Source: Psammoneis japonica
Lineage: Eukaryota
Direction of reading: 5' to 3'
NCBI GenBank assembly: GCA_008632985.1
Contig: QPGO01000027.1
Coordinates: 248,001 to 312,000, forward strand
Length of the DNA: 64,000 nt
In this document: positions 4,768 to 57,324 of the stretch, in pieces
Numbering within the stretch: the first letter of the stretch is position 1
Layout: the number at the start of each line of letters is the position of its first letter
The notes under the pieces: generated by a model
What the model was told of the DNA's origin: nothing
The model's database searches: none
The model's input: only the letters and a program-made list of their open reading frames with translations
Made by a program: the position numbers and the translations under genes

Positions 4768-7700
4768 TCAGCGAACCTCCCGCTGTCGTGCGAGAGAGAA
4801 CATGGTGCCAAGCGCAAGCACCAAAAAGAATGCCAGCAGCACTCCGATGTTGCCACTAACTGAAGGCGGGTTATCAAATGCATAAATCTCGTTTACAAGG
4901 TCCTCATGCACTGTACCCCGAAAGAAACTCAGCGCAAGACCCTGCAACGTGTACTTGCAAGGGCTCACCCACTGTAACCAACTGATAAAGCTTTCCATGG
5001 ATGGGAACGGGACAAAGCCGCCCGATAAAGCGAGGCTCACAGTCACCACACCCGATCCCATTAAGAATGCCAAGTCCTGCGAAGGGAGAATGATTGAATG
5101 GAAGAGAACCAAGGCACTTCCGGTCAGTCCGCTCGTTATCAGAACGGCAAGATAAGTGAAGAACGATTCCCACTTCTCCATTACAGGGCTCCACAGGTTG
5201 CACATGTTGACAATAATAATGGTTTCGATTGTCGCCGCAATGATAATCACCCATGTTTCCAGAATGATTTGTGAAAGGCAGTAAATCCAAGGTGAATACA
5301 AACCAAGCGCACTTTCCGCCAGGTAAAACTTCTTGTCGTGGACAAACACCGGGATCATCGCAAAGGGCAACAGGTACGAAACCAGTATGATAAAAGTCAT
5401 GGCCCCTACAATGGCGTTGACCTCTGCACCGAGGTTCACACCACCGTCAATATTGCCAACATTCCAGAACAGCAGGCCGTCCACCAAAGAGCATGCACCG
5501 TAAAGGACAATCCTACAGGCAAAGTTTGCAAGATTGCGGACGTAGTGGTTTGTGAGATTGCGCTTAACCACGAAGCGGAATTTCCACCAAGCACCTGGAG
5601 GTTTCGTAACATCATGGTCCATGTCCTTGATAGTTGAGACGAGGTCCTTGGACATGTCTCGCGTTAATGACGACCTGGCTTCGCCTGAAAGATCAGCGGC
5701 GCGAGCCACAATGTCAGACGGTAAATCATACCAATCTGGCAACTGTGCATGAAATACATTCTGGTAAAGAACTTCCAAGCGCAACATACAGTCAGAAAAG
5801 ACTGTTGCGCCTTTGTCAAGGAGTACGAGACGGTCAAACTCGCGGAAAAGAGCACCACTGGGTTGATGAATCACTACCATTGCAGCCACACTCCTTGAAA
5901 TACAAAGTCTCTTCAGAAGGCGAGTCACAGACAAAGCATTCTCGGAGTCCAATCCACTGTGAACAAAAAAGCGCAAGTTCATTCAATGTAACAATATCCA
6001 GGTGCAATGAGACCACAGAACCAACTGCACATACCTTGTGATTTCGTCAAGAAATAATACCCGCGGCTTGAGGGCAAGAGCGCAAGCCACAGCGAGGCGC
6101 TTCCGCTCACCACCAGACATACCGCGAATCGTAAGACCGCCTGCGAGCTCGCCTCCGATTGGACGCTGGCACGTCTTCCAACTGAAGTTTAAGGAACCAC
6201 ACGGCAAACATCAGAACACGCGTTTCGGTGTTGTCGTCCATTACGAAATAAACTTTCAACGTCTTACCTCAACCCGACCTCTTCGAGCACAGTTCGAACG
6301 CGACTCATGCGCACAGCATCACCGCGAGGGTCCTTGCCCTGTTTCAGATTCGCCGCGAACGCGACAGCTTCTTCTGGAGTTTGTGTCGGGAAGAACGCTT
6401 CGTGCTGTGGCACATATGCGGCAACAGAATTAAGAATGCTGCACGCGTTCCTTTTCTGTGCCTGCCTAGCACAATATTCATTGCCAAGAACTGAAATCCT
6501 ACCATCAAGCCTCCCAAGAGCCTTTCGTCCCGACAAAACGTCGAGAAGGGTACTTTTACCAGAACCACTGCCTCCCATAATCGCTGTCAACTCTCCCGGT
6601 CGTAGCTGGCCGTACGAGTCGTCGAGGCTAGTAACATCGGCATCCGACGCACTCTTTCCGCGATAGGAGCAGGAAACTCTCGACCACGACAGTAGTGGTG
6701 TTAGCGCCATCGTATCTTCTTCGTCTTCGGTATGTTGCATTGGAAAACTCTCTTCTTTCGAAGATCCCATTATGATGTCCCCACTTCCAACCCACGATGA
6801 CTTCGATCCCCGCCTTGGCGCATCAGGAGTGTCTTCAGTGTTCTTCCTCTGAAGAAGTGTCATTGTACAAACAATAGCACTGAATAGAAATGACACAGTA
6901 AGCAAAACGATCGAGAATATCAGAGGGAACACCTCCAAAGCGTTCTCGGCATATTGGTCCGCGTACTCCTCTAGAAACTGGTCCGACATAAACTCTGCAA
7001 GCATATAGACAGATGAAAGTAAGCCAGCGGACAGTGGGAAACGTCGAAGAACGGACGAGTCAACTACGCGAACACCAGTCAAGCCTCCCATCAGCTTCAA
7101 ATCGCCATCAACAACACTGCCAACTGCACAGCCACCCACAAAGTGCCAGTTGGTGTTTGAGGAGGCCGACAGCCATTCTTGCATTGTCAAGTTTCCCGGA
7201 CCTATTTCTTTCATCCCAAAGTCCGGTGGAAAACTGTTGACTACCTCTCGCATGGATTCGACGCAGTCTGACGCCATGAGAAAGTCTCGAGGATCTTCCA
7301 GAAAGTTGGTGTGGACCTCCGGCTGAGCAAAAGCGTCCTCCACATTCGAGATACTAATGTTTCCGGTACTAACCGAGTTCAATTCACAAATAGCTGCAAA
7401 GGTTGGCCGGTCTCTCGCTACGGTCCCCGCAAAAGAGGACGTTTGATATCCCAAGAGACCCGCTTTGCCTAAAGTACAGCTCAGAGCAATACCGTATGGG
7501 CCACCTTCACCGGTTTCAAACTGCCGCTGTGCTTCATCTGTTAGAAGCGTGGAGTTATTCGCCCAGTCCATAGGCCGTCCTTGATATTCACCCAACGCGC
7601 CAACAAGAAGTCTTGCTCTGGTGTCCGCGCCAACAGGAAGATCTGCAAGAATCGTGGCGACGCCCTTCTCCTTCAGCAATTCTGAAGGTCCAATTCCCGA

Positions 7701-8619
7701 CAACTGCAGTAATTTGGGCGACCCGTAGGGTCCTGCTGACAGAATGATTTCCTCCTTTGCTGAGATCCTCATTGGTTTCTCGAGATCACCAACAGAGGAC
7801 ACCACAAACTCGACTGGACCCTTCATGCGATTCAAATAGTCTTGTGACGGTTGCGTCCTGGATAACAGAGAGTGAATTCTTGCAGGTGCCTTGGAGGGCC
7901 GGTTTCAAGTACACTTCATCAGCACTAAATCGACGTCCATTTTCGTTGCCAAACAAGAAATTCAGCTCAACCGTGTTCCTGCTCACCCCTCCTGGAACCA
8001 GTTTCTCTGTATTCTCCTCAAAACCATTAGCTAAAAATGCATTGATCGCATCCTTTGTGTAGTTTTGTTGCACACCTTCTGCTGGCTGTGTAACAACCAA
8101 AGTTTTACTGACGCGCTCAAAGACTCGGTTTGCGACCGGGGTGACGAGTCCATTAATGCCCCATTGCTCGGCCGTACCATCGAGTGGGAGTGTGTACTGA
8201 AACGAAATGGTACTCGCCCCACCCAAGGTGGCAGCATCATACATTGGTACTTTTCGACCTAATCGACCAGTTTCGGTATCAAACATGTTTTCATTTGGTT
8301 GAGATACGATGGTTTTCCAGATGCCTTGTTGAGCGGGACTCGGTTTACTAAGGTACAAGAGCTCGTTCTGTCTAAAATTGTTTGCAGGGAATTCTTGATC
8401 GGCAGTACGAGGAGCGCCACGTTCCAGCATAACAATCTTTGCTTTCGGAAGATCTTGACACAATCTGGCTGCTAAAACACAGCCAGCTGAACCTCCTCCC
8501 ACAATTACAAAATCTGCTGATGTCGGAAGATCGTCCTTTCCTGCAACTAGCATGGCTGCTTCAGTCAATTGATTGGTCCAGAGGGTGGGAAAGCTGAGTA
8601 GCAGAGGCAGTAGTAGCAT
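4768..8619 (-). CDS. Fusion of a secreted GMC oxidoreductase, a TM helix and an ABCG half-transporter (NBD-TMD); one apparent frameshift near 7790-7805
   Basis: Signal peptide; FVIVGGGSAGCVLAARL (FAD binding), EIILSAGPYGSPKLLQLSGIGP, WHFVGGC, GVRVVDSS (GMC); hydrophobic helix; Walker A GGSGSGKST, signature MSGGERKR, Walker B LFLDE, IHQP, multi-TM ABC2 membrane domain; introns 6182-6267 and 5957-6034. The GMC C-terminus and NBD lie in one ORF (6264..7835). Confidence 0.85.
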
Positions 8620-9093
8620 GGTGATGCAGCAAGGGAAATTTACTCTCAGCGGCGACGAGATAACCGGCTTATCTTCAAAATGTCGAAAGGTTGTTCTCTT
8701 TTCTCTACCGGTATATCTTAAGGCAACCTGACAGTTAAAACTTATCCCGCCGCAAAAGCAACACTCGATAGACACTCGCCTACAACAAACGACAACCGGC
8801 GTAAAGTTACCCCTTGATTGATAGACAGCACACGCACAACTTGACTGAACATAGGGCCCTAGATATCAAACATCAGAGATAGAAAACCCAAAAAACCGAG
8901 GAGCAGAAAAATGAGAAGGCTTCACTTGTTGTAATCTCTATGTATGAAGGTTTTAATAACTTGTTGTGTTCGCTTTAGCTGCATCTCTAGAGAGGGCCTA
9001 CTCTGCTCTACAGTACCGTATGTACTGTACTGTACACAAATTCTTAAGTGTAGTATCTTTCCGTTGAAAGATCCTCACCTCTTGCGGCAAGCC

Positions 9094-9922: not shown

Positions 9923-10731
9923 TTATTCCGTGACATTTCGTACCCGAGCAAATGATGCAATGACAATCCGATGGTCACTACCGCCGCAAGATCCAATCCT
10001 GGCCCCTCCAGAGTCAAGCAACTGCAAATCCTTGGAATGAAAAATGTAATCATATTCAAAGCTCAACAAGGGTACACCGCATAAGCCAAAACTCCAAGTA
10101 GACGTATTCCACCCAATCTTGGGAACATTCATAAAGCTCATCCTCTCGAGGTAACGTATGCAGGCGCCGTTGGGACGCTCATTGAAGTCACCAACAATGA
10201 TAGTAGGTACATCTGTCAGGAGTTGTCTGAAGAATGTTTTGATTTCATCCAAGCGCTTCGCCTTGACGTCTTTCGAGAAGTATCCTCCGACCCAATCAGC
10301 ATGTACGCCGTACCAGTTGCGTTCGTGCGTGAAGAGAACCGGTGCCCGAAGATGGACTACCAAAATTTGGAGTATATCGTCATTGTTTGAGTAGTTTTCA
10401 TGCAAATCACGGTTGTTTGGCAATTTCAACATGATGCGTCCAGCTGGGTACCACCCACGCTCGGTTTCTTTTATTGTTTGAACGCAGTCGATTGGAAACT
10501 TTGAAAGACACGCAAATCCAGCCCATGGATTGTAAGACTCATTATGAAAATAACTAAAAGGATATTTTTCAAGATATCGTGCTGTTGTTTCAAGTAGGTT
10601 TCCCAATCACGGTTGATTTCTTGTACATCTGCGCCACACGTTGCAATCACCCGGGAAGTTGCTTCGTTCGACGGAGACTTGCAAATGTGGCTTACATTGT
10701 AAGTTGCGACGACAATATGATTTTCCGTCAT
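9923..10731 (-). CDS. Endonuclease/exonuclease/phosphatase (EEP) family protein, frameshifted
   Basis: VATYNV, DVQE, LSKFPI, VHL, IIVGDFN, YDYIF, GSDH motifs split over two frames; the shift plausibly lies at an A-run near 10565-10570. Confidence 0.75.
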
Positions 10732-11736
10732 GCTTGTGCTTTGGAAAAGGATACGCGTTAATGAAACGCCGTACTGCAGAGTGACAGCCTCCGGCTCCGC
10801 TCAGGTCATCATGGTCCGATTTTCGCTTTCTCCGATCGCTTTGCAGCACATGCGCCTATCCTGCAAGCGTCGGCCGTTTCTCGTCTGTACCTTGAGTCCA
10901 GTTGAACGGGATTTCGTTCAAATCGAGCTCGGTGAAGCGATCTGCTCTACGTGTGCTATGGTACAAACCTGTAGTGGCATGGTGTTAACATATATATAAT
11001 GAATAAAAGGGTACAAAAATGTGGACATTTTCAAAAAGAAATGCTGCACATAAAATGTGCAAGAAACAACATTTGAGTGAACGTCGAAAAACGAAAAACC
11101 TGCGCGAGCGGACGCAAAATCTGAAACAAGTCATCGGAGCTCGAGTCGATGTTGGCCAGTTGCGTAGAATGTAGAATGTACGCTGAACATGCACCAGGGA
11201 AAACCCGGATGTGTGGCCAACTTTGGCCAAAGCTGGACACAAGGGTGCGAGACCCGTCTGGCCGGCATCGAAGATCCAGGAAGTTCAAAGAGCGCGCAAT
11301 CCGATGAGATCCAGCATTCATCTAAGACCCGTTCCATTGCCCTTGCGAACCCCTGCGAAACCTGTGAAACGACATTTTTCAAAAATGTTTGAAATGACGT
11401 CACTTTCTGAATGTTGACGTCTCTGATGCTGTCACTGATCTCGCATTCGTAACGGCGAGAGCTGCGAGGTGCGCGGGGTTCGCTTCCACCGTGCTGGGAT
11501 GAAGCACCAGCATCAGTGCTGTTGACACAGAAAAAGCAAATCAACCACGCTCATGCGAACGTGCAATGTCTTCGTTTGATCAAGATGCACCAGATCTCAA
11601 TGCATTGGTGGCAATGAGACCAAGGAAAAAGAAAAAGAGGATGGCTCCATTGGCAGAACTCATTGCTGTGTTGTGTCTGCACGCTGACGCCATTGAACGA
11701 TGAGAATCATCATGCGAGCGTTCTCATGCGAGATGC

Positions 11737-12968
11737 ATGCTTCGGGACTTGCTTGATTCACGCTGTGCCTCCTTGCTCACCGGAGAATTTGCAACTGTTT
11801 TCAGAATGCCTCCACACGCCATGGAGTGCCTCCGAAACAAATTGCATCCGCACTTGAAGCCAAAGTTGTCGGATGCCAACACAGCCGGCCGACAGGATTG
11901 CGACCGGAGGCCACTTGCGGTCGATGAAAAGGTGCATCTCGGCTGCATGGGGTCTGGAGGTTGTTCTTTGGGTGGTCTCATTTTTGCTTTTGGCTTGGGT
12001 CACACGAGTGTGGAGGACACGTTGTTTGATTTTTTCAAAGCCATTGTTGAAGCCGGTGTTGGCACCACACATTTTCCCACGACAGAGCCAGAGCTGCGAC
12101 ACTTGGCAAATCAATTTTTACAAAACAAGAACAACCTTCCGGAATTGTGCGTTGGTCATGTGGGAGCAGGAGATGGACGTGCTGTGAGAATTCGCATGCC
12201 AGGCAGCGACGAATGCGAGAATCCAATGGCGCATGTCAATCGGAAGGGTTTTCCAGCCATCAGTGTTCAAGCGATTGCAGATGCAGTCTTAAAGTGTCGA
12301 GTGTTGGACGTCCATGCCACAGGAAATGCTCATGACAGGACAGCTTGGGAATTGTGCACCACAGCCACGAGATGGGAGAATGAAATGCGATCAAGCATCG
12401 AGGCACCGAGAGGCACTGCTGCATCTCTTTGGATGAGGCTTGTGGCTGTGGTGCAAATCGGGTTGGTCCATGGCCAGGCACTGGGCTTGCAGAGCGTGAG
12501 CCACACAAGGATGCCTTCAACTGTCATCTGAACAAAGGCCACCACAATTGCATTGAGCGCATGTGGGGCAATGTCCACCAGAAGTTTGGGATTTTTTGGC
12601 GTCCTTTGCTTTTTCCATTGCGCAGGTGTCCGGTGGTAATTCAATCTATTTTTCGTCTGCACAATTTCCTGAAAGACCTTGGTGTTGATGATGATGAATT
12701 GTGCGTTCCTTCAGTCAACAACGGACCGGGTCAGCATCGACAGGGTGAGCCATTCCTTTCCTCAGACGAGCCCATGGGGCACGACCACAACCTGTGTCCC
12801 ATGGACCAATGCTGGCTTGAAGACAGGGCCATCCCACGGGTGCGTCATGGGCAGTGTCCAATTCGGGAACAGATCACAGATTCATTGAGAACTGCCAACA
12901 TTGTTCGCCCACCTCGCAGTGGCGGCAGAAATGCAGTGTCGGCATTGATGGCATCGAATCACAACTAG
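11737..12968 (+). pseudogene. Harbinger (DDE_Tnp_4-type) transposase, frameshifted near 12430; true start probably further upstream
   Basis: FRM, GAGDG, NRKGFPAISVQAIAD, GNAHD, DEAC, FNCH, IERMWG, LHNF match the Harbinger/IS5 DDE core. Confidence 0.85.
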
Positions 12969-14545
12969 AGAACCGATCTGATGTGTGTGTGGAAATAACA
13001 GTGGAACCATTGGATGGCTCTTGTTCTGCAGATAATGCAATTGCCATTGATTGTCCCACAATTCCCAGTTCTTCTAAAGCAACGGCTAGTCAAGCACGTA
13101 GAGTGGGGTTTTGGCGCGCAACTACGGGTTATTTGGATAATTGAACACAGATTCGGATTTGCTTGTGGTGTGGAAATAAAAGCAACACCATTAGAAAGCT
13201 CTCGTCCTGTAGATGATTTTATTGCCATTTTTCATTGCCTGAGCTCAAGCACTTCTAAAGCAACAGCTAGTCAAGCAAAACGCAATTGGATTTTGGCGCC
13301 AAAAACAGGGGTTGTTTGGTTGTCAGAATGCCGATTGTTGATGATTCGGATCTGCTTGGGGTGTGGAAATGAAAGCAGTGCTGTTAGAAAGCTCTTGTTC
13401 TTGTTCTGTGGACAATGTGGTTACCGTTGATTGTCCCATAAATCCGAGTTCTTCTAAAGCAACTGCCAGCCAAGCAAGCGCAGTGGGATTGTGGCGCGCA
13501 ACTCTACGGGTTGCCGATTGTTGATCATTCGGATCCGCTTGGGGCATGGAAATGAAAGTAGTGCCATTAGAAAGCCCTCGTTCTTGTTCTGTAGATAATG
13601 CAATTGCCATTGATTGTCCCATAATTCCCAGTTGTTCTAAAGCAACGGCTAGCCAAGCAAACGCATTGCGCGAGAGGCGTTTTGACGGGATTTTGGCGCG
13701 CAACCGGGGTCGGCAGGACATCTGAATGCCGATTCGGATCTGCTCAGGGTATGGAAATAAAATTGACATCATTGGAAAGCTCTTAATCTATGGATGATGT
13801 TGTTGCCATTGATTGCACCACAATTCTAATTTCTCACAAAGCAACGCCCACTTGAGCAAAACGCATTGGGATTTTTGAGCGCAACTGCGCGATCGGCAAG
13901 ATGTCTGAATGCCGATTCGGTTCTGCTAGAGGCATCCAAATAAAAGCACCATCATTAGAAAGCTCTCGCTCTTTAGATGATGTCATTGTTGTGGATTGTG
14001 TCAACTCCAATTTCTTCTAAAGCAACACCTGCTCAAGCAAAACGCAATGTGACCCGGGTGCGCAAGTGCCGGTCGGCAGGATGTCTGAATGCAGATTCGG
14101 ATCTGCTTGGGGCATGGAAGCAGATCTAACATCATCAGAAAGCTCTTGATCTACAGATGATGTTTTTGCCTTTGATTGTGCCACAATTCCAATTTCTTAT
14201 AAAGCAACACCTGCTTGAGCAAAATGAACTGGGATTTTGGCGCGCATCCGGGGTCGGCGGGACATCTGAATGCCGATTCGGATCTGCTCAGGGCATGGAA
14301 ATAAAATTAACATCATTGGAAAGCTCTCATTCTACAGATGATGTCATTGCCATTGACTGTGCCACAATTCCTGTTTTTTCTAAAGCAACGCCCACTTGAG
14401 CAAGACGCACTGAGATTTTGGCACGCACCTGCGGGATCGTTGCGATGCATAAATGCCGATTCGGATCTGCTAGCTGGAGGGTCATAGAAGTAAAAGTTGC
14501 ACCATAAGAAAGCTGTGATTCTGTAAATGATGTCAAATGCATTAC
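12965..14545. repeat. Tandem array of about 8-9 diverged 180-200-bp units inside the Harbinger
   Basis: Anchor motif CTAAAGCAAC (or close variants) at about 13074, 13255, 13454, 13637, 13837, 14017, 14199, 14380. Confidence 0.9.
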
Positions 14546-14548
14546 ATT

Positions 14549-16447
14549 CTACTCACTGCTGTCTGAAGACGGAAAATCACCATCCGCAGTGTTGTTGTCC
14601 ACATTGGCACACGATGCAAATGCACAAACTTCCGACCCGCCAGTGCAATCAGGGTGCCCACAAGTCAGGGAAGTAGGGTCATCTTCGTCAAGGTGAGCTT
14701 TGCAACCAACACGATGCAAGTGACGCCCACAATGTTCAAAGTTGGAGCACATGTTTGAAGACCAGGAACCCAAATCCGAGCAGTTGAAATCGTGGTGTTC
14801 CGCCTCGTCTTTCGTTCCAACTGGCTCATTCCGCTTGTTGCATTCTATGTAGCCGCAGTGCACTAGTTCATTGCGTGAATCGCTCTTGCTGTCAGACTGG
14901 ACATCTTCTTCCAGCTCTGTAGACTCATTCCCTCGGTCGTCGCCATCGGAGCAGTTTCCCGCAGAGACTTCCCTGGATTTGTTCCTTGCGCAGCATTGGC
15001 GGCTCTTGTGTTTGCAGCAAAGGTTGAGTTGGCGCAAATCATTGACATCACAAACAGCACAAAGAACATACAAGGCACTCACCTCATCGTCGCCGCTGCT
15101 GGACGGCACAGACAGAAGAAAAGAAGTGTCGTCGTGCTCAGTGTCGCTGTCCAACTCAACTTTTCGCGCTTTCGCCACCTCTTTCTCAAGCTCTTCGCAC
15201 TCACTCCAGGCTCTTTTGCACTGCTTGATCTTTCTCTCACGCTTGCTCAAGTCACCAGCCTTTCCATGCCTCATGGCCCGAATCTCATCGGCCAGTCGCT
15301 CCGACTTGTTCTGTGCGCGGTCTCTGTTCTGCTGCAAGAAAAACATGTTCTCCTTGTTTTCCTCATTCATCATGTCGCTTTTCATCTCACTGACCACATT
15401 CAAGATTCTTTCAGACATGCTCTGTGACTTGCTGGAGGAGCTGTCACCCTTTCCCCTGCTGCGCAAGATGGAGTTGGCGGCGTCCAGGCTGCGTTGAATG
15501 GTGCTGGGATCCGACGAGTCAACGCCACAGCCACCTGGGAGGAGGAGCACAAACTTGTTGAGAACAGATGAATCACCATTTTGGTCAATTACCTTCCACC
15601 AATAGAGAATGGATTGGTCCAGTGGGTCAGTCAGATCAAGAGCATTCTCAAAACCTTCCGGATCCGAGCCGCTCTTCGTGCCGACCTTGTGCACCACTGT
15701 CAACCTGCTGCGAAGCTGTCCAACCCTCAATTTCAACACATCTGGAGCACGGGAAGAAATGGTCTTGTCATTGGGATTGAAGGCTTTGAGAAGTGGGTCA
15801 TCTGGAAACCGATGGGTCGGTTTGTACTTGTCAAAATTGTTGTGCAAAACAGCAATGAATTGTCGGCACACAGACATGAGGGGCGGGTCGCCTTCGTCAA
15901 GCACAACACGTGGAGCCTTTTGGTGAAGGCACTGGAGGGGTTTCTGGAAGCTCGGGTCACTTAAAATCTCAATGATGCGAGAATCTTCTTTGGAAGCGCT
16001 GAAGGGGCGCTTGTCGATGCGTGCTTCTTCCTGCCGGAAGACGCAGAACCACGTCATCAGACGCTTCTTCAAGTGGCCAGAATTGCCTGTGGTGGAAATG
16101 TTTTTTGGTGCAGGATTGTCATCACGAACATGCTTACACTTATGGCAAAGAGATCTGAGACTGGCCACTTTCATTGACATGATGCTCGCGTCCGCAAGCG
16201 TCTTTTCTTCTGCAGACAGTTCTTCGCCGTCACAAACATGCAAGGACATGAACAGCTTTTGATCAAAGAGGTGAGGGGTTGGCACAAGCCCCATGTCCTT
16301 ATCATAAGGCATACCACCATTGTTGCTGTCTTGCATTGGTGGCACTTGGTTGGTGCCATTTGTGTTATCAGTGCCGTCGCTTGAAGACGACATGGTACGA
16401 TCGATTTTTTGTGTTGATTGTTTTCTAGAGCGCGTCTCGTGATGCAC
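14549..16447 (-). CDS. Harbinger accessory (putative DNA-binding) protein with SAP-like segment, coiled coil and Cys/His-rich tail
   Basis: 632-aa ORF between the TIRs, convergent with the transposase; MKVASLRSLC..TTGNSGHLKKRL resembles a SAP motif. Confidence 0.6.
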   Translation of the reverse strand: MHHETRSRKQSTQKIDRTMSSSSDGTDNTNGTNQVPPMQDSNNGGMPYDKDMGLVPTPHLFDQKLFMSLHVCDGEELSAEEKTLADASIMSMKVASLRSLCHKCKHVRDDNPAPKNISTTGNSGHLKKRLMTWFCVFRQEEARIDKRPFSASKEDSRIIEILSDPSFQKPLQCLHQKAPRVVLDEGDPPLMSVCRQFIAVLHNNFDKYKPTHRFPDDPLLKAFNPNDKTISSRAPDVLKLRVGQLRSRLTVVHKVGTKSGSDPEGFENALDLTDPLDQSILYWWKVIDQNGDSSVLNKFVLLLPGGCGVDSSDPSTIQRSLDAANSILRSRGKGDSSSSKSQSMSERILNVVSEMKSDMMNEENKENMFFLQQNRDRAQNKSERLADEIRAMRHGKAGDLSKRERKIKQCKRAWSECEELEKEVAKARKVELDSDTEHDDTSFLLSVPSSSGDDEVSALYVLCAVCDVNDLRQLNLCCKHKSRQCCARNKSREVSAGNCSDGDDRGNESTELEEDVQSDSKSDSRNELVHCGYIECNKRNEPVGTKDEAEHHDFNCSDLGSWSSNMCSNFEHCGRHLHRVGCKAHLDEDDPTSLTCGHPDCTGGSEVCAFASCANVDNNTADGDFPSSDSSE

Positions 16448-16507
16448 CTCTCAGGAGGCATACAGTCGGATTGAACATACCACAAATTCGCACGTAGGTT
16501 CTACGGA

Positions 16508-16551
16508 TTGCGAACTTGCCAGTCGATTTGAATCGACTGGCAAGTTCGCAA
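16508..16551. repeat. Perfect 21-bp inverted repeat with 2-nt spacer
   Basis: TTGCGAACTTGCCAGTCGATT-TG-AATCGACTGGCAAGTTCGCAA. Confidence 0.95.
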
Positions 16552-16896
16552 CAATTATGGGCGAAGTTCTGCGAGGGAAATGCGAGAAAAGTCACTAAAT
16601 GTCCCTTGACGTTTTTATCAAAATATCCGGCCTCGAAGTTCGCAGGTTTCGCAGGATTCGCAAGGGTAACGGAAGGGCCCTAAGAAGCGACCTCGCTCAG
16701 CGCGGTTCCGTCCGGCCTTCGTACGGGACCTTTCGAAAACCACTTGCACAAAACATCACAAAAATCGCACACCATGACGAGTGCCGCCGACGCGTCGTCG
16801 TGTAGCGCTATAACTTTTATGATAACAACTACCAAACCTTGCACACACGATCTAACAGTATTCAAGTACATGTTCATGTTTTAGATTTGCTGAAAT

Positions 16897-18105
16897 ATGT
16901 CGGTTTCATCGATTGCGCCGCGGTTGAATGGCGACACTCATGGAAGCACACAAAATGCGGCTCCGATGTATGGCATGACCCAGGAGAGGCAAATTATGCT
17001 TGTTGATCCCAAAATCAACCTTTCAATCGTTCGAGCACTTGGTTTGAAATACAATGGATGCGAGACACCACGTCACATTCTCGGTTATGATGCCAATTGG
17101 CAAAACGTTTTTCGGAAGGTCCGAGATTTCGTCAAAATGGATGCCGCTGAGCAGAAGATCGAGAAGAACCGCTGGGGCAAGTTCCCACGATGGGAAAAAG
17201 ACATGTATGAACGAAGGATTCGCGTGTTGAATGAGCAAAAGGCTGCCATTCATGAAAAGCATGCGCAAGCAACCATCGGAACTGCAAAATTACCGCGATC
17301 AGTTTCACCCGTGCCAGAACCGGTCGCGCAACAAACATCAGTCGCTACAGACAATGATGCCGCCGGAGAACAACAGGTAGAGCCACCCAGCAGTGTATCT
17401 GACAAAAGACTGACATCAGCCGGTTTGTCAGAATCGTCAAAGGTTTTTAAGAGGCAAGAGCAGAAAGCGTCGAAGCAGAACTCCAGCGTCGGAGTCTGTG
17501 GAACAAACAAGCGCCCCCGCCAACGACGGTAGATCGAGTTTCAATCTGAAAGCTACATCACTTTTTTCCCCAGTAGAAGAACGTCTGGCTTTGGTAGAAG
17601 ATGCAGAAAAGGTAAAAAAATCTCGAGACACTTTGCATCTGATGGGAACGAATGCAGCTTCTCTCAGCCAACAGGCGGACAGAACTGCGATTGATTCGAT
17701 TCACGCACTGTTGAAGAAAGCGGGAACTGCTGCTGATACGACACACTATCCAAATCGGCTTGATAATGAACCGTGTGTGCGTGTTGTGTGCTTGGTTTTG
17801 AACGGGGTTGAACCTTCCGAGACGGATGGCGGGCAACGAAATGCAATCGACCTTCCTGCCAAAAAGCCGGAGTTGCTGTTGGTCACGCATTCAGGGGACG
17901 ACATAAAGCTGTAATGCAAGCGTTCAAGGCTGTCACTAGGAGTGAAACAAGAAGCAATGATGCTTTTCACTTTTACCCATTAGTTGCTGGCAAGGATGGT
18001 TTGGTTTCATCTGCCGTTGAGAAGTGCATTGATGCTTTCAAGAAGAGTCGTAGGAAACCATCCAAAAAGCCTCGAGCGTACCCTGAAGTCATCGAAGAAT
18101 TATGA
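16897..18105 (+). CDS. Unknown protein inside the TIR element, apparently split into three consecutive ORFs (16897-17532, 17498-17914, 17914-18105)
   Basis: Head-to-tail overlapping ORFs with protein-like composition; no recognised domain. Confidence 0.4.
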
Positions 18106-18966: not shown

Positions 18967-19320
18967 TTTGTGACAATACTGAAGCTACCCCAGTGATCTG
19001 AGATGAAAGAGTAACCGAGTCTATTAGTGGTATTGGATAATACTAAACGGTTGTTGAGCTACACGACGACGCGTCGGCGGCACTCGTCATGGTGTGCGAT
19101 TTTTGTGATGTTTTGTGCAAGTGGTTTGCGAAAGGTCCCGTACGAAGGTCGGACGGAACCGCGCTGAGCGAGGTCGCTTCTTAAGATGAGTATGTGATCC
19201 AGGATCCAGCCATAAACGAAAACGGATGAAGCGTGAACCTCTCATTGTTCATGCTGATCGCATCTCATTTATCATCATTGATTCATAGATTCTGAACATC
19301 AGATACAATAACACTACCAC

Positions 19321-24162: not shown

Positions 24163-25540
24163 TCAAGATTCCTTCGCAGGTGGGCCTGCTGTCCCATCAA
24201 CCTTATTCGCGTTGCTATTGTTGCGTGCAAATCTCGCTGATCTCGAACTCGGTTTCAATATTTGGAAAGAACACATCAAATTCTCATCCACCGAAATCAT
24301 GCCTCCAGCATTATCGAATTCACCGCAGTAGTTTGGTGCTGAGAACAAGGTAACCAATCTCCGACCGGCAAAGAATTCGTATCCATCCTCCACTACTTGG
24401 TGTGCACGAATGACCAAGTCTAAGTCAAATTGGTCCAAGACACTAGCCACGACATCGGCGCCAAAAGTAAATGAAACGCCACGATCGTTCTCAGCCCAGC
24501 CCTGAATACATGAAGCAACATGATAAGCAAGTGGTACGGTTTAGTGACTCTCAAAAGTCAACGCATACCGGAGTTGCCACGCTTTCTCTTAACTTACCGA
24601 CGTGTCTGGATTCGGATCACTCCATAGCAAATCGCACATGAGTCCAACATCAGGAACATCGCAAGGCCGTTGCAAATTGGCAATTTGTTGCAACGATGCT
24701 AATTCGGGGCTGAGCCCACCATGCATGCAAAGAATCTTTTCATCCACCAGGGCCGACACGGGCAAACAGTTGAAGACATCGGAAAACACTTTCCACAACT
24801 TTATGCTATACCGACGTTTGCACTCATCATAAAATCCATAAATACGGTTGATACCTGCACTCTCGTGGTTCCCTCTCAAAATGAAAAAGTTCTCCGGATA
24901 CTGTATTTTGTAAGACAACAAGAGGCATATAGTTTCTAGACTCTGCTTGCCGCGATCGACATAATCGCCTAAAAACAAGTAATTGGCCTGATCGAGAAAC
25001 AACAAGAGAGAGAGAGATTAAGAACGTGAGTCACGATGCATACCAGCAAAACAACAAGAGCAACGAAAAACAAAGGTCACGACGTGTACTCACTTCTGGA
25101 GGGAACCCGCCGTATTCTAGCAAGCGCAACAAGTCTGTGTATTGACCGTGGACATCACCACAAATTTTGAGAGGCGCTTCCAGTTCCAACAGCATCGGCT
25201 GTTGCAGCAGAATTGGTCGAACTTTTTGGCATAGCATTTTTATTTCTTGTTCTGAAAGACTCGCCAAAGTACCGGGCGGCGACCCACGCAAACCTAGCAG
25301 TCGTTGTGTTATACTCACAACTCCCTCCAATGAAGCATCTTGTATCGGCGGGGTCGCTTCGGGAGCATGATGAGACACTGGTCCTTGTGAAGGCGGCTGC
25401 TGCATGGAGTTTGAGGAAAAGTTACTGTCGAGGCTGCTACTGCTGTGAGTACTTCCGACCGTGATATTTGTACTGGTATCATCAGGACCATCTGTCATTG
25501 CTGATGAAGACTGCGGTGATGATGGCGGAGATATATCCAT
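24163..25540 (-). CDS. PP1: Ser/Thr protein phosphatase PP1 catalytic subunit, 3 exons, Ser-rich N-terminal extension
   Basis: GDVHGQ, GDYVDRG, RGNHE, HGGLSP, SAPNYC; exons 25540-25094, 24987-24598, 24501-24163 with GT-AG introns. Confidence 0.97.
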
Positions 25541-26327
25541 GCTGGGCGTAGTTGTGTGTCCGTAGAATGTTTGTATTCAGTCTGTATCACTGTGAAGCAA
25601 GCGAAAATCGTTCTTGATCGTCCACCACTGGTATCTCGCTCTTCTAATCACACTGGGGGGCAGCCTCTAGCAACACTGTTCATGCAGAGAGCTTCCGACT
25701 CCTTCCAATGCTTTCCGACGGGCTTATCTGAATTCGTCACTGTTCGCAATACGTCGTGGTCGTCGCAATTTGCTCGTTTCATCTCACAGTTACGAGCGAG
25801 TACCGTATAATATCAATGCGTTCTCGGTCGCGTGTTCGTCGCTGGCATTTTTTGTGACGTTTTACTCGCAACCGAACACCAAGACTCGCAACAGCAATTT
25901 TTAGAAACACTTTATTTAAAGAGGGCAATTCACCTTATGTGTCGTAAAAATCATCTTCATTCCTTTGAATTTGCATAGACAATCGTGCTTTCGTCGTCAG
26001 GCGGACTTGCTGTCGATTCTGTTGAAATTCGATTATATCGATCGAATATATCGAATGAATCGATCAACACGACCGCGAAAATTATTCGAAGCGTACCTTT
26101 ATCAGCAAATGAAATTGGCAGTTAGACCTTACCAAATTACAAAAGTAGTATCGTACACAGAAACGTTGAGAGCAAGATATTCTGAACGGTTTCTAATTTG
26201 CATATTATGCTTTGTGTGCGATTGTAAATTGCAATGTCCCAACAGCCAACAGGAGCAATGCTCCAGTCCTCTATTAACACAAGTACTAACATCATTCATA
26301 TGTCTACCTGATAACTACCTTTCCTTC

Positions 26328-31599: not shown

Positions 31600-34500
31600 A
31601 ACAGATTGTCAAGGCGCACCCGCACGTTGGCTGCACTGTCAGCCAAATCAACGCCATTTGCTGTTCACTCTAGAACAACAACGGAGATGTTGTGCCCCAA
31701 CATGTGCACTCTACACTCACTTGTTAAATTACAAAGCTAATGATTCTTGTTGGCTGAAACTCTTGAGCCACTTTTGAGACTTGACACAATGACCCATTTG
31801 TCCCGTCCTTCACCCTCTAAATTTGTTGCATTGGCCAACAAATGGGGCAAATGAGTCACATGTTTCCACTGCAGGTCACAAACTGCCTTGCAGCCGGAAG
31901 AAGTAATCTGTGCCTTTAGAACCACCATGATGCACTGGTCTGCCAAGTCAAACTCCGCATCACCTTCTGGGTGCACGTCAAATGCGCGGCAAAATTGCTC
32001 CACGACAAGTCTGAGCTGTTGAGAGCTTGAACATCTTCAAACACCACAGACCCAAGCTTCTGTGTTTGTGTGTTTATGATGAAGTCATCCTGATGCTGTG
32101 TCTGTGACTTGGACTTGTCGTCAGACTGCCGTGGCCGTTGCAAGGTAGAAGCGACATTCAAAGCAAGCTTTTCTCTCTCAGGGATGGCTCATGGCAAGGG
32201 AGACCCTGCAGAACAAAACAACAATGAGGAAAGACAACATGTGTGTAAGTTGAAAGAATGTGAACGTGTGAGTGCTCAACAAAATGCACAGCATGAATGG
32301 TGATGCATGAGTTGCGTGTTGATGCAACAAAATCGGCGGTGTCAACACCAATCTTCAGTTCAAAATTTTGCCATGATCCACCCATGTGAACCTGGACATT
32401 CTCAAGCTTGTCTCGCATCTTATGATGTGACGCACCAAATTCCATTGAGAGCACACAGGTTCCAACCTCAGAGACGATCGCATTTTTCAAATCGGTGAAA
32501 CGCCATTGTCCGTGTTGTTTTGCGTGTTGTTTTGAGCCGCGAGCCAGAAAACACTCCCAAAAACTGTTCTGCAGGGCGAAATGCACTGAATCTACACAGA
32601 TTTGGGTTGCACCAGGCCACGTAGAAAGTGAACGGGCCAAAAACTCCAGTGCGCCCACTTAAATGAGTGAATGAACCAATCAAAATAACGTCTGATCAAG
32701 TTGCCCCCAACGCATCATGTCATTTTCTGATGCCCCAGGTCCCAGGCGACGTCGACGACGTTGGAACAACAGCCGCTGTCCACCAGGTCTGGATTTGTAA
32801 AATCAGAGATTGGCCTCTGGAAGCAACCACACTTCTGGATTGTGCTGCCAGATCAATTTTCATTTTAGAAAGGGCCGCTGCTGTGCTGAGCACTTGTTGC
32901 CATTTTTTTCTGCTTCGACACGCAGCATTCCCAACCTTTGTGTTTCTTGCTTGTGCTGCCAACAATGTGGACTTGTTGGCATTCTTGTTCTCAGTCTCTT
33001 GCTGTGCTCTTTGTTGGCCCAGTTCTCATTTTCTCATTGCTGTCAAGGAACCCCGTCTCAGTGTGGCTGAGAGCGGGCCAGCAGCCAGACAGAGCTTGCC
33101 TGGCGATGATCTTTGTGCGTTTTCTCCACTCCCTTGGTTTCATCAACATGACCTTCAGGCTCATGACCTTTTCATGTTCCAACACACTCCTGCAACAGCT
33201 CAGGTTGTTGACTGGTGGGCTTTTGTTGTCTCACCCACCCTTCAACAATGTGGGCTTCTTGAGCCCTTGTGTTCTTGGCCTCATTTTTGTGCTCTTCATT
33301 GGCCCAGCTCTCATTTTCTCATTGCTGTCAACCCCTCTCAGTGCTGCTGAGAGCAGGCCAGCCAGAGAGATTGCCTGACAATGATCTTTGTGCATTTGCT
33401 CCACTCCCTTGGTCTCATCAACATGCCCTTCAGGCTCATGACCTTTTCACATTTTCCAACACATTTCTGCAACAGCTCAGGTTGTTGACTGGGCTTTTGT
33501 TGTCTCATCCGCCCTTCCATGATCTGGCACCTGGCTCAGACAAAGTTCTGCCCTTGCCACTGCTTTGTCAGGAAGCCCATTGGTGATGAGCTGGTTGGGT
33601 TGAACACCAAAAGCTGTGCCACATCAGAGGGTGTTTCAAGGCCACCAATCATCAATTTCCACGGGTCTTGCACAAGCCGTGCATGTCATTTGGTTGTTTT
33701 CTGTGTTTGCAGCCCAGCCTCTTTTTGAGGGCAGCTCTCCACTGTGCACTGAGAGCCCTTCTTCATTGTTTTTGTGCTTCTGCATTGGCACGTTGGGGGG
33801 AAGGCATTGCTTGTTTTGTGACAGGTGTCTGTCTTTTGCCCACACTCCTGGTTTCCTGCTGTGGCTTCTGCTGTTTTGTTTTTGCTGTGGTCCACTCCTG
33901 AGATTTCTTTGTGGGTCACTTTTTGGTGTTTTTCAACTTGATCTGCACATGTGACACTTTTTGGCATTTTTCAACTTTGTCTGCACATGTGACTCTGGAG
34001 TTGTCAACTTTGTTTTTGGCACTGGAGTCCTTGCCAGGCTGTTGTCTTTTCCTGTCAGTTCTGTGTTGTTGGAGCCACCAATTTCATCAGAGTGCTGCTC
34101 AGTCATGGAAGTTGACCAAAGGTCAAGGTGCTGGGGGTCGTGAGATTGCCAACATTGCAGGAGCACTGCAGTGTGTGTGTTTTGTTGTCACATTGTCATG
34201 GTCAACTTTTCCAGCTGAGATGTGGTTGAGTTGGGCACTGAAGTGGGCTTTTCATCTTGGGGATGATGGACAAACTGAGTCTGATGCTGAAGTCTGAGAC
34301 AGTTTGGTGGTGTGCCAGCCAAACTCAACTTTTGTGCTCAATGTGTTGTCTGACCACACATGCCACCATGTGACCAGGGCACAATCTCAGCCACACAATC
34401 CATGATGAACTCACCCGTCAGTTGGACTTTTCTTGCATGCAGGCAGCATCACTCCACACCCAGCCATCAGCTGAGCACACAACCATTGACAAACCCACTG

Positions 34501-37500
34501 GTCAGCTGGATTTTTCTAGTCAATTGGCAGCCACACTTGTCTGCTGAACCCCCCAACCTGATGGGTTTGTGCCCATGTCCCAAGATGCCAAAAAGAGTGT
34601 TCCGCTTGCAGCAGAATGTGTTTCAGCATTTTTCATTGTGGAGGACTGTTTCATCCCCTGGCTGCGCTGACAACCCAGATGTGAGGTGCACCGCAGTGCA
34701 GTGCACAAACAGTGGCAACTTCTTTTCAATGGACACAACTTCTCCTGTTTGTGGAGTGACACGCAGATGTCTGGTCTGCTGGATGATGGGGGCTGTTTTC
34801 CCAGAGCCAGAGCTCAAAGAACTGGCACTTGGGTTGTGAGCAGCTGTGACTGGTGCTTTTGTTTGCCCCCCCCCCAGTGGCGGGGTTTCTGCAGGACTCA
34901 CATGATGACATTCAAGGTTGTGACTCACAGAGACCAGGAAGTTGGCACAGCATCATGACACGGAAGCTGAGGTGAGGGGGGCAACCTGCTCAAGAGTTGG
35001 TGGTTGCTTGGCAAAGGACAAGGCAAACTGCAGTTGCCTCCTTGCTTGCTCAGTGTGCAGGGTTGCAAAGAAACTGGTTGGCTGTGGTGGAGCTGATGTT
35101 CAAATCAAGCACAAGAGAGGCTCACCTGGAGGCATGTGTGAGCCATTGCTGGTTGCTTTGACACAGCATCTGGCTTGTTGGCAACAAAGTTTTTGGGTGG
35201 AAGTGTGGCAGAACTTTTAAAATGCAAATTTTGTGTTTTGTTTTGCAGCTCACAACTTGTGCCCCAATGTCAGCTGCAGATTGGAGTTTTGGTCATTGAT
35301 CAACCCACATGTGTTCACCAATGGTGGTGCCTCCAATGACTTTGACACAGCAGCTCTGTGCCTCCGATGGAGGAAAATTTTCTTGGGAGTTGCTTTTTGA
35401 CAAATTCTCTGACACACCTGCTCCCACACATCACAACATGTGATGGACTCAGTCCTGCCCCATGCAGCTCCTGGGTCTCACCAATGAAGGTGCAGCCATC
35501 CCTGATGAAGTGACTGAGTTGTGTTTTCCCAATGACAGCTCTTTCCACATGTTGACATTGGCAATGTTGCTCAAGCTGATGTGCCTGATTCTTTGCCAGT
35601 TTGTGGGCAAGAGATTAACCCTGTGACTGTCCACCATGGTTTTAAATTGATGCCAGGCTGGCACCAGCAGCCACCACAATGTCCCTCCTTGGGGGGTCCC
35701 TTTGGTGTGCAGATGTTTGGCTGGTGCACCCTGTTTTGACCTCCAGCTCCACAGCTGGTGCCAAATGTCTGGTCTCCTCTCCCAGACACACAGGCCAGAA
35801 TGATGGACCATGGCTCTCAAAGCATTCTTGCCTGGCACCCACAAAAGACACTTGGATCCTTCAGCCTGCAGTGGTTTGGCTGGTGCACTCCATTTTTACC
35901 TTGAACACAAAGCTGGCAAAATGCTCAGCTTCTTTTTGTTGCAACACTTGAAAATGCCAAGTGTCCAAATCATTTGTTTTCACAAAACATTGGCACTCAT
36001 TGCTTGGAGTGTTTGTGGGAAGGCCGGTTGTTGCAGCTGGCCAACTCAGTTGGAAAAGTTGAGATCAGAGCAGCTGATGCAGTTGCCACAGAAACCAAAA
36101 CACAATGTGCAAGTCTCGTCAACCAGCAAAATTGGGTGTCTTCCCATTTTCCTCCACAGCTTCATCATGTGACTGGTTGTGCCATTGCCTCCACACCCAA
36201 CATGTCACAACAAAGATGACATGAGTGCCTTGTTGTTGTTGTTGTTGTTGCCGTTGTTTTGCTGTTTTCCAAATGAAAACTGAGGAGCACTCGTGAGTCC
36301 TCATGGTCTTGCTCGAGCAAGACAAAAGCAGCAAACATGCAAAACAAGAAGACTCATGATGCTGGAGAAAAGGATTGGATTCAGAAGGCAGCAAAAGACC
36401 TGGCAGAATGCAGGGAAGCACCAGAGAACAACCACAGCCATGGCAAAAAAGCAACAGCAACAGCAATGATGAAACCACCAGACAAGGAGGAGCACACAGC
36501 ACACAGATGAGATGCAAGAGCAATGCCAGGAGAGCATGGGTGGTGATCAGCATGGTGAAGACAACAGGTGTGGTGATGGTGAGCAAGAGGAAGAAAATGC
36601 TGGCAGGCAGGGCCAACAGAAAAAGCCCAAAAAAGGAGCAAACAGCAACAGGCCATGCCAGCAACCACACAAAGGGACAGCTGCTTGTGGTGCAATTTGT
36701 TGTGCACACTTGACAGACACAAACACACTCAGTTGTGTGCAGGCAGTGGTTGACTTTTGAGTGCAAGACAGAACTCTGACAAAAATGTGCTTGTGGAGCC
36801 AATTTGCAGCCAACAAAATGATTGGCTGAAATGGAGTTGTTGCTGCTGGGATGCATCTGAGTGTTTTCCACCTGGCAAAGTGGGAGGTGAAAATCAAAAA
36901 CAGGCTGTGGTTGCTGTGGCGGGTGAGAGTTTTCCCGCCTGATGGGTGGGGAAATGTGACTTGCAGACATTGTTTGTGCAGCCAATCAGCAGAAAACATC
37001 ACATGTCAGATGGGACATTCTTGCATTTAGGACAAAAAATCCTGCCATGCAGAGATGGCCAGATGTCAGGTTGTCTGCACCTTGGACATTGTTTTGTTCA
37101 CACAGCAAGCCCAGCATGAGTGCTTGTTCAAGTCCAGCTGGGACAAACACCAGGCAAGTTGGCTGCTCCTGTCTCTTTTTCTTGGAGCATTTTCTCTCCA
37201 AGTGTGGTGCTCCCCTTCTCATCACACATTGGCACCATGACCCAGTGGTTTTTTGTCTCCATTTGTCTTTTTCTTTTCTTTTCTTTCCATCATTTCCAGC
37301 AGCACTGTCAAGTGCTGCTCCACTGCCACCTTTTGCACCAGCAAGACAAAAGTCTTGCTCACCTAAAAACTCTCATGAGCGCCATGTGGGTTGGACCCAC
37401 ACTTCTTAGATGTTGATCGCCCATCAGTGAGAAAACATCAAACAGCAACTTCTTTGTCAATGGGCAGCTCTGCATGCAATCTGCACCCAGCAGAAGCACA

Positions 37501-39300: not shown

Positions 39301-39608
39301 TCTCTCTTTTGTGAACAGTGACATTTTATTTGTGTCGATGTGTCAGGCAGGCCCCACACCTTGCATGTTCGATCGATCGATCGAGACCTGTCTTCCTAGC
39401 GTCCGTCCGCGATCCGACTGGTGACGACTCCTCTCCGCTCTCTCTCATTTTTTCCAATCTCGCATCTCGCTCGTGACGATCGATGATTGATGATGAGCGG
39501 CTGCGATAATGAAAGAGATGGGCGAAGAAAACTGATGCGCTGCCTTGTCATTGGTGCTTTGGATGCCACTGCTCTCTCTCTTACTACCTCCAACTTGTTC
39601 AGCATGCG

Positions 39609-52930: not shown

Positions 52931-53279
52931 TAGAGATGATGCAAACTGACGGAGCAGTGCAGTGCGCGTGACAGCACCTTGCTTTTGTACACTCTCCATC
53001 GTGAGTCCATGCGTCGACCGTTGTCGTGTGCTCTGCGCACACCCAAGTCTCCTCATTGACCTTTTTTCTTTTCAAGTTTTTTGACTGAAAACGGACAGAC
53101 TGTACGACAACTCGAAATCGCATCGCTCGAGTTGAGTTGTTTTTCGCCAGTGGCATTTTCACTCCAACACCCCATTTCACACTTCACACTACGAGCGTGG
53201 TGGGTTCTCGCCATGAAGACACCAATGTTCTAACTGTTCGAAATCCACCCATTTGTTCACAAACAATGAGTGTCATTGA

Positions 53280-54260: not shown

Positions 54261-54674
54261 AGGCATTGCTGGCACACACCTGCAACATTTTAGGTCGTGG
54301 TCCGCCCAACTGGGTTTTCTACAACTGCTGCTCTGCAGCAGCTGTCAGCAGCAGGCGTTGCTCAAGAAGTTCTTGTCTCACCCGGGCCTTCCTCGCCCGA
54401 GTCTCCCTCGCTTGAGCCGTCACCACTCACATGCGCTCGCCGCAACAATGCAAAAAAGGGCAACACCCTGTCTGCATGCACACATTTGGGATCACTCAAT
54501 TTGCTTCACTTAACTGCATCGCTGTCAAACACATCGTAGCGAGCACTGTGTCCACAGCCAGCATTTCATTTTGCATCCCTTCCATTCTTGACGGCCGCCT
54601 CCTCCTGCGCACCTGGCAGCTTTTCAATCATCAACTCTGACACGGGTTGTGCAATGTCACACGACTGGGACCTT

Positions 54675-56630: not shown

Positions 56631-56807
56631 GACAGCAATTGTTTCTATCGTGGCAGTGAGGTGAATGCGATGTGTGTGCTTTCGATCGAGCGCGAGCGAT
56701 TTTGAGATGGATTTCGAGTTGTCGTACAGTCTGTCCATCGAACTTGAAAAGAAACCAGGCCTGCGGGGAGCATTGACCACTTGTCTTTCTTTGTGGGTGT
56801 CGGTGCA

Positions 56808-57200: not shown

Positions 57201-57324
57201 GGATGTCCCCACAACCTCTCATGTCCTCAATGATGATTCCAAGAATCTGAAGAATTCATCTGCACTAAACAACCCACACCCTTTCAAAATCCAAGGGACA
57301 CACTTTCAAATTCAGACGGACAAC

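Follow-up and report, generated by a model that had tools for sequence, protein, structure and literature searches.

Probable in-place conversion of TpA to CpA and TpG in a dead copy of a PIF/Harbinger transposon

The DNA analyzed here is a 64-kb stretch (the window), in which positions 11326-16680 are, judged from the sequence, a dead copy of a PIF/Harbinger DNA transposon. We consider it likely that the TpA dinucleotides (TA) of this copy were converted after insertion to CpA or TpG by a targeted, strand-symmetric transition process with a putative enzymatic agent. In the proposed course, TpA in a dead copy of a multi-copy family would be rewritten in place by a process that targets repeated or foreign DNA and spares the surrounding host DNA. 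A single kind of event, an A read as G at the self-complementary TA, would yield TG when it falls on one strand and CA when it falls on the other. In coding sequence, tyrosine codons (TAY, Y being a pyrimidine) would become cysteine (TGY) or histidine (CAY) codons, the stops TAA and TAG would be removed, and spurious open reading frames (ORFs) would be lengthened. The process would be separate from the decay of CpG to TpG/CpA and would, in this copy, exceed its rate by a factor of about ten or more. Comparisons with protein relatives, host DNA and other copies established the direction of the change, its specificity for TA, its locality and its independence between copies.

The original prediction had identified the element as a Harbinger, and a DDE_Tnp_4 transposase, terminal inverted repeats (TIRs) and a TAA duplication at 11326..16680 bear this out. 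Reading from its left end, a transposase gene (+ strand) is followed by a tandem array, then by a second gene (− strand) and finally by the right end. The first gene is listed as follows:

11566..12968, + strand: DDE_Tnp_4 (PIF/Harbinger) transposase pseudogene with 0 Tyr and 5 TA in 1329 bp (tblastn, Pfam, table of Tyr columns).

The transposase is one gene in two frames, running in frame +1 to about 12389 and in frame +3 from 12390 to a TAG at 12966-12968, as indicated by tblastn of three protein relatives (P0001-P0003) on the window, which gave two high-scoring segment pairs with 65-77% identity. It is disrupted by this frameshift (near 12390) as well as by a TGA in frame at 11701-11703, and the ATG at 11566 is its putative start, placed from the frame and the N-terminus of P0002. 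The relatives were retrieved from a search of 5.8 billion proteins; they are 390-459 aa long and 68-72% identical, with E ≤ 1.5e-91. All three carry a precomputed PF13359 hit (39.4 bits, E 6e-10 for P0001), and the transposase of the window scores 19.5 bits (E 8.2e-4) on this family, under the cut-off of 24.8. Its alignment with the relatives shows the motifs GDG.., ..LDEA.. and ..IER... Hidden Markov models (HMMs) built from the relatives and tblastn of the window's own ORFs found transposase and second-gene matches, within the 64 kb, only in the element itself. Two scans of metagenome contigs for DNA of the relatives, one with the transposase alignment and one with the alignment of the second gene, gave no confirmed locus.

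Two transposase ORFs had been described as free of tyrosine, and both, 11737-12531 (264 aa) and 12429-12968 (179 aa, in a different frame), contain 0 Tyr, compared with 16-18 Tyr (3.7-4.2%) in P0001-P0003 and 1.6-4.8% in five host ORFs of the window. The motifs in which conserved tyrosines had been thought to be replaced align as expected, with AHVNRKG corresponding to AYRNRKG or SYVNRKG, DEAC to DEAY or DDAY, and FNCH to FNYY in the relatives. We defined a Tyr column as one with Tyr in at least two of the three relatives, and compared the 386 aligned columns that have agreement between two or more relatives. All 16 Tyr columns are changed in the window, nine to His (CAY), six to Cys (TGY) and one to Arg (CGT), whereas 286 of the 386 columns are conserved overall (Fisher p = 1.6e-10). 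Intact relatives do have Tyr at these positions.

Analysis of the 100 differing transposase columns indicated that the inferred single-step changes at TA comprise 12 T>C, 8 A>G and 1 ambiguous case, and those off TA comprise 9 A>G and 1 T>C. Another 3 single-step changes lie at CG and 4-5 are other C>T/G>A changes; among the remaining columns, a transversion is required in 34 and more than one step in 26. As inferred from divergence, TA accounts for 20-21 of the 37-39 single-step transitions, and the substitution spectrum has the excess in TA context that the original prediction called for. Histidine and cysteine replace the lost tyrosines of both genes at 13:8, with no strand bias (p = 0.38).

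The second gene lies on the − strand in an ORF at 14549-16447 (ORF2), which divides into two parts:

15110..16393, − strand: part of ORF2 homologous to relatives of about 450 aa (protein relatives, Tyr columns).
14549..15109, − strand: read-through extension of ORF2, about 180 codons, 9.3% Cys (relatives end near query residue 446-452; composition).

ORF2 has 43 relatives at E ≤ 1e-3, the best of which (P0004) is 57% identical over query residues 35-446. Tyrosine makes up 0.7% of the homologous part, compared with 2.0-3.3% in the relatives, and in comparison to P0004-P0006 only 2 of 13 Tyr columns are kept, the others reading 4 His, 2 Cys, 4 Phe and 1 Val (p = 3e-4). The extension at 14549-15109 is most likely not ancestral coding sequence. 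TAA and TAG are scarce in TA-depleted DNA, so that ORF2 runs about 180 codons beyond the end of its relatives; together these stops occur about 20 times per kb in host DNA versus 2.4 times per kb in the transposase core, with TGA steady at about 20. An antisense ORF of 208 aa at 14871-15497 (+) has no homologues and lies in TA-free DNA. Both long ORFs, 14549-15109 (−) and 14871-15497 (+), are artifacts to be expected from missing TAA/TAG stops and a trap for gene callers. At 15080-15095 (−), where the ORF2 relatives end, the sequence ..GAG|GTGAGT.. resembles a 5' splice donor.

No Pfam family was found in the window ORF2 or in six relatives, and no Myb/SANT-like domain in Pfam or fold searches. 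Foldseek of ORF2 against the PDB gave nothing at E ≤ 1e-3, the best match being the Sap1 DNA-binding domain (E ~1, probability 0.44), and VIA-align gave matches to a generic C-terminal helical hairpin only (Z ~8). The atlas look-alikes of ORF2 are unnamed oomycete proteins, which serve as a lead only. The element resembles PIF/Harbinger transposons in its DDE_Tnp_4 domain, 3-bp TAA duplication, short TIRs and opposite-strand second gene of about 450 aa; unlike typical members, it has a second gene without a detected Myb/SANT-like domain and an internal 183-bp satellite array, and this copy is inactivated.

The loss of TA extends to the dinucleotide composition. The element contains 85 TA, compared with 344 expected from base composition or 224 at the observed/expected ratio (O/E) of the host. 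In the coding cores, the O/E values are 0.07 for TA, 1.59 for CA, 1.46 for TG and 0.73 for CG, and the 13 dinucleotides other than TA, CA and TG stay within about 0.2 of the host (CG 0.73 vs 0.94; GT and CC 0.12 lower). The GC content of the element is 0.49, compared with 0.48 in the host. Judged within the 64-kb window, the loss is local, the TA O/E dropping from 0.6-0.7 to 0.0-0.1 within a few hundred bases at repeat edges. This sharp drop bears on an untargeted alternative, in which TpA is hypermutable genome-wide, unconstrained DNA drifts toward being TA-free and genes keep their TA by selection. The host TA O/E is 0.66 overall and lowish in ORFs of at least 120 aa (0.57), as in many genomes and as such drift would allow; outside such ORFs, however, it is higher, at 0.83 over 10,812 bp. 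The least constrained host DNA is richest in TA, which counts against a genome-wide drift from TA, and we regard this alternative as very unlikely.

To separate the loss of TpA from that of CpG, arginine columns were compared with tyrosine columns. The transposase retains Arg at 29 of 32 Arg columns (CGN at 22 of these), and no Arg has turned into Cys, His, Gln or Trp; ORF2 retains 19 of 25, and its changes include one Arg>Gln and one Arg>Trp. CpG-type changes at Arg therefore amount to 0 of 32 columns in the transposase and 2 of 25 in ORF2. Counted as codons lost, the transposase has 16 of 16 Tyr versus at most 3 of 25 possible CGN Arg, and ORF2 has 6 of 8 informative Tyr versus 2 of 15 CGN Arg. 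In this copy, the loss of TpA is complete or nearly so where the loss of CpG is about 0-13%. The view that TpA loss is distinct from CpG decay is upheld by the TA>CA/TG changes, polarized by Tyr-bearing relatives, and by the departure of only TA, CA and TG from the host in the cores; that it is also faster holds, for this copy, from the same codon counts. CG had likewise been described as still frequent in the element, and it numbers 253, compared with 324 expected (O/E 0.78 vs 0.94 in the host). CpG decay appears only to have begun in this copy. Three window-derived CpG-type differences lie in the left TIR and 5' region, the premature TGA at 11701-11703 is CGA in other copies and is thus a CpG>TpG change, and the TIR differences and two ORF2 Arg codons point the same way.

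The four TA-poor blocks of the window fall into two kinds. The Harbinger and the block at 53-58.5 kb have lost TpA with CpG near the host level, and the blocks at 33-39 kb and 58.5-64 kb have lost both (CpG O/E 0.10 and 0.35). In 500-bp windows, 128 in all, low CpG never occurs together with normal or middling TpA; 18 are low in both, and 20 combine low TpA with normal CpG. These data bear on the idea of a single activity behind both losses, such as a deaminase of relaxed specificity that attacks A at TpA as well as C at CpG. Both losses yield TG and CA, CpG-poor windows are always TpA-poor (0 exceptions in 128), and ADAT2 enzymes reported to act on A and C in DNA are cited in the available part of a preprint on the chlorarachniophyte Bigelowiella natans (Mettrop et al., bioRxiv 10.64898/2026.01.13.699255). 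However, TpA is almost fully lost with CpG near the host level in two blocks, so that the two processes can be told apart by rates that differ ten-fold or more, and CpG decay has an ordinary cause in the CpG methylation of diatom transposons, as described in the parts seen of PMC2806351 and PMC9998398. A single activity is accordingly a highly improbable account. The original prediction had further placed this copy at an intermediate stage of decay. This is plausible, and the nested pattern of the blocks fits such an order of events; the pattern comprises about four independent blocks whose ages are not estimable, and it does not demonstrate the order, because a loss of CpG confined to particular elements would give an identical picture.

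Other copies of the element were found in a public sequencing run (X1), which contains 65% of the element's 31-mers and whose contigs were compared to 10500-17500 at an identity of at least 80%. The 598 matching contigs, 132 at ≥99%, 101 at 95-99%, 152 at 90-95% and 213 below 90%, are spread across identity classes and make the Harbinger family multi-copy. No RNA dataset was among the public runs matching the element's 31-mers. Of the best 40 of 1232 difference rows between copies, 29 lie inside the element. They include five adjacent CA<->TG pairs, one of them at the Tyr codon at 11713 (TGC in the window, CAC in the others), five single TA<->CA/TG differences, at which the window is derived in two cases and other copies in three, five CpG-type differences and nine others. 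Where one copy has CA, another TG and the outgroup TA, the same TpA was lost independently after the copies separated. The comparison thus argues that TpA was lost in each copy on its own, following separation.

The tandem array inside the element has a similar pattern of variation:

12945..14535, no strand assigned: tandem array of about 8.5 units of 181-188 bp, with 51 TA, or 32 per kb (Tandem Repeats Finder, unit mapping and alignment).

Differences among its units are mostly choices between TA, CA and TG or between CG, CA and TG. Both CA and TG occur at 27 adjacent column pairs (176 kept columns), compared with 5-13 in seven control classes, and the third state at these pairs is often TA or CG. 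The same repeat family recurs at 53288-54267 as five units of the 183-bp satellite in opposite orientation.

The multi-copy data also bear on a group of four accounts that we regard as the least probable of all, namely that the family is intrinsically TA- or Tyr-free, that the changes arose by RNA editing and reverse transcription, that they reflect GC-biased gene conversion, or that they are an assembly artifact. ADAR-type editing has a preference for U ahead of the adenosine that is edited (according to the available text of bioRxiv 10.64898/2026.01.13.699255), and nothing else specific favors any of the four. The tyrosines of the intact relatives contradict an intrinsically Tyr-free family. 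An RNA route does not suit a cut-and-paste DNA transposon whose TIRs, satellite and flanks are affected too. The barely raised GC content and the few A>G changes off TA argue against gene conversion, and the independent contigs, which share most of the element's 31-mers and in 132 of 598 cases are at least 99% identical, against misassembly.

As for the agent of the targeted conversion, we tentatively suggest enzymatic deamination of adenine at 5'-TA-3' in DNA (A to inosine, read as G), as proposed for B. natans, and give this step, taken alone, slightly less than an even chance. In the parts of the preprint that were available, two integrated viral regions accounted for 231 of the 302 nuclear mutations in mutation-accumulation lines of B. 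natans, and A>G/T>C changes, all at TpA, made up 230 of the 231. Hypermutation of this type is also characterized by an episodic, directly measured rate of about 1000-fold above background. Genome-wide, coding sequences poor in TpA showed an excess of 'DDE superfamily endonuclease' and reverse transcriptase domains, and an ADAT2-like deaminase was proposed as the agent (bioRxiv 10.64898/2026.01.13.699255). The two cases are alike in that A>G/T>C changes are confined to TpA, giving TpG/CpA, in particular non-host regions, and in that the long-term trace is TpA depletion with CpA/TpG enrichment, with DDE endonuclease genes among the TpA-poor coding sequences. Unlike the present case, inferred from one decayed transposon and its paralogues, the mutations described there arose de novo, mainly in an insert of a nucleocytoplasmic large DNA virus and one of a virophage; moreover, B. 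natans is a rhizarian and the host here is probably a diatom (Stramenopiles).

A thymine lesion could leave the same trace. In this account, a TET/JBP-type enzyme would oxidize the thymine of TpA, within silenced repeats, to 5-hydroxymethyluracil or one of its derivatives, which mispairs with G and leads to T>C, seen as A>G from the opposite strand. By the symmetry of TA, its sequence signature would be identical, and the Tyr table and the between-copy data fit both routes. In dinoflagellate DNA, 5-hydroxymethyluracil is reported to be enriched at TpA, which counts for this route. We nevertheless consider it unlikely, as the sole experimental precedent, B. natans, is ascribed in the available text to an ADAT2-like adenine deaminase, a proposal equally without proof (bioRxiv 10.64898/2026.01.13.699255).

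Comparison of the proposed TpA conversion with two known processes places it apart from both. Like repeat-induced point mutation (RIP) of ascomycete fungi, it involves irreversible transitions in a dinucleotide context on repeats, leaves transposases with missense and nonsense changes and produces a skew that can be used as an index. Unlike RIP, which is C>T mostly at CpA, creates TpA and adds stops, the process here would destroy TpA, make CpA/TpG and remove TAA/TAG. The RIP signature of C>T at CpA with TpA excess is absent from the element, where the TpA O/E is 0.07-0.25 and that of CpA 1.5-1.6. Like deamination of 5-methylcytosine, it acts on a self-complementary dinucleotide, is strand-symmetric and has the products TpG/CpA, and CpG decay that may be of that kind, the slower process named in the original prediction, is strong in the 33-39 and 58.5-64 kb blocks. 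It differs in the dinucleotide and the base, since the CpG O/E of the element is 0.78 while that of TpA is 0.07-0.25. We infer a role as genome defense. A broader scenario is possible but doubtful: a RIP-like TpA defense, either shared across the Stramenopiles, Alveolates and Rhizaria (SAR; here Rhizaria and Stramenopiles) or multiply arisen, would act on diatom DNA transposons as a first, fast step before slower decay by CpG methylation.

Several points weigh against targeted TpA conversion. The proposed agent is a guess, and the process is known here from divergence between sequences. One Tyr became Arg (TAT>CGT), which requires a second change outside the TA context, and nine of the inferred A>G changes in the transposase lie off TA. 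The relatives are protein sequences, and the polarization accordingly covers no synonymous sites. The between-copy spectrum, taken from the best 40 of 1232 difference rows, reflects a selection of sites by their support. Finally, TA is uneven within the element, with 6 in 11326-12968, 5 in 15000-16100, 51 in the array and 9 in the last 233 bp, an unevenness that a uniformly acting process does not predict. The TA count rises weakly with the summed contig depth across 29 bins (rho +0.38, p 0.04), so that the depth of related contigs fails to explain the cold cores. In the broader scenario above, the match of the cold spots with both coding cores, and the sparing of the satellite and one end, would hint at targeting guided by homology or RNA and not by place within the element.

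The host is probably a diatom, as suggested by two genes encoding an ABCG transporter and a PP1 phosphatase. The sole organism-named match of the ABCG fragment is Stauroneis constricta (47% identity). The organism-named matches of the PP1 fragment at 88-90% are all diatoms, namely Astrosyne radiata, Thalassionema nitzschioides, Leptocylindrus danicus (two rows), Attheya septentrionalis and Chaetoceros sp., and its top matches by E-value are multi-domain plant and animal proteins with 69-77% identity. No protein of the window has a match near 100% identity in the protein collection, and the genome is therefore none of the annotated ones, such as that of B. natans. Diatoms are known to have Harbinger elements and to methylate their transposons at CpG (PMC2806351, with methylation also in PMC9998398, as far as the available passages go). 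In the full-text literature searched, no report of TpA hypermutation in diatoms was found, and the signature appeared only in the B. natans preprint, the available text of which contains none of the words 'diatom', 'stramenopile', 'tyrosine' and 'CpG'. Matching passages in the accessible parts of PMC9258296 and PMC4504042 proved unrelated to the TpA signature. The element would accordingly offer a clear example of a DNA transposon hit by TpA-directed hypermutation, in a lineage without an earlier report. If true in diatoms, it would extend a mutational defense known from a single 2026 preprint to major marine primary producers, and would argue for deep conservation or repeated invention of DNA-editing immunity beyond animals and fungi. 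In practice, gene finders would call long false ORFs in decayed repeats in which TAA/TAG are missing, homology searches would miss transposases with rewritten Tyr, Ile and Leu codons, and transposon ages from total divergence would come out too high. Multi-copy Harbinger families with conserved Tyr codons would offer a natural reporter, the converted TAY fraction being a read-out of exposure that is comparable with CpG decay and with transversion-based age.

The ends and the insertion site of the element consist of the following features:

10920..11322, no strand assigned: left flank, repeated in the genome, TA-poor from about 11013, with 5 TA in 311 bp (contig depth, TA positions).
11323..11325, no strand assigned: left copy of the target-site duplication, TAA (sequence; flank alignment to a paralogous uninterrupted site).
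11326..11368, + strand: left TIR (inverted pairs I1 and I7, adjacent and collinear).
16639..16680, − strand: right TIR, retaining TA at 16667 and CG at 16670 (sequence, inverted pairs).
16681..16683, no strand assigned: right copy of the target-site duplication, TAA (sequence, flank alignment).

PIF/Harbinger insertions have a 3-bp duplication, typically TWA, which here is TAA on both sides, with a single (T)TAA at the paralogous uninterrupted site. A 134-bp segment right of the element (16681-16814) is copied in inverted orientation at 19050-19183 with 96% identity. When joined with one TAA, the flanks align across the junction to the paralogue at 19050-19190 (reverse complement), reading TCATCTTAAGAAGCG, and through this alignment the paralogue serves as an empty site. 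The TIRs are about 43 bp long and imperfect, composed of 32 nt at 78% (I1) and 17 nt at 94% (I7). The left TIR is the more mutated arm, with TG where the right arm has TA, and CA and TG where it has CG; at position 11365, the window has T (TG) and the contigs of other copies have C (CG) in 9 of 9 cases. Differences of CCAT/CCGT and TTGC/TTAC between the arms had been noted earlier and are indeed present, the left arm reading TTCCATTGCCC (11332-11342) and the reverse complement of the right arm TTCCGTTACCC.

On the left, the single-copy contig stops at 10919 and the summed k-mer depth then climbs from 57 to 270-357, and the flank at 10920-11322 is probably a fragment of another repeat, outside the Harbinger. 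On the right, the inverted duplication 16681-16814 / 19050-19183 encloses about 2.2 kb with three unannotated ORFs. Positions 17000-18000 are moderately TA-poor (O/E 0.26-0.39) with raised contig depth, for which the data reach 17500. The enclosed region may be another mobile element, into the end of which the Harbinger inserted.

The other TA-poor blocks of the window were also inspected. The blocks at 31600-39400 and 58500-64000, with TpA O/E of 0.02-0.03, very little CpG (0.10 and 0.35) and CA/TG at 1.7-2.0, are probably old, doubly decayed repeats. Pfam searches of 25 stop-to-stop ORFs from the TA-poor blocks and right flank, and of ATG-started ORFs of the TA-poor blocks, found no family. 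The block at 53000-58500 (TA O/E 0.07-0.35, CpG near normal) opens with the Harbinger-type satellite units; HMM searches found no transposase or ORF2 homology in it, leaving the satellite alone in common with the Harbinger. A direct repeat of about 412-417 bp with 80% identity links 56782-57198 and 63579-64000, the right copy being CpG-decayed. Its 73 difference events comprise 25 CG<->TG/CA, 7 CA<->TG pairs, 4 TA-type, 10 other transitions and 27 transversions. With 27 transversions among the 73 events, this pair is unlikely to be the long terminal repeats of one insertion and was rejected as a dating clock.

Among the host genes, a PP1-type Ser/Thr phosphatase at 24592-25576 (−) is split over two ORFs, STPPase_N followed by Metallophos, which suggests a short intron, among the few visible introns in a gene-dense window. 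A host sulfatase in the window has atlas matches only to bacterial sulfatase clusters. At 4768-8865 (−), a single open frame encodes both a GMC oxidoreductase (PF00732/PF05199) and an ABCG half-transporter (PF00005/PF01061), and the same GMC-ABCG fusion is present in two metagenome relatives of about 1250 aa (P0048 and P0051).

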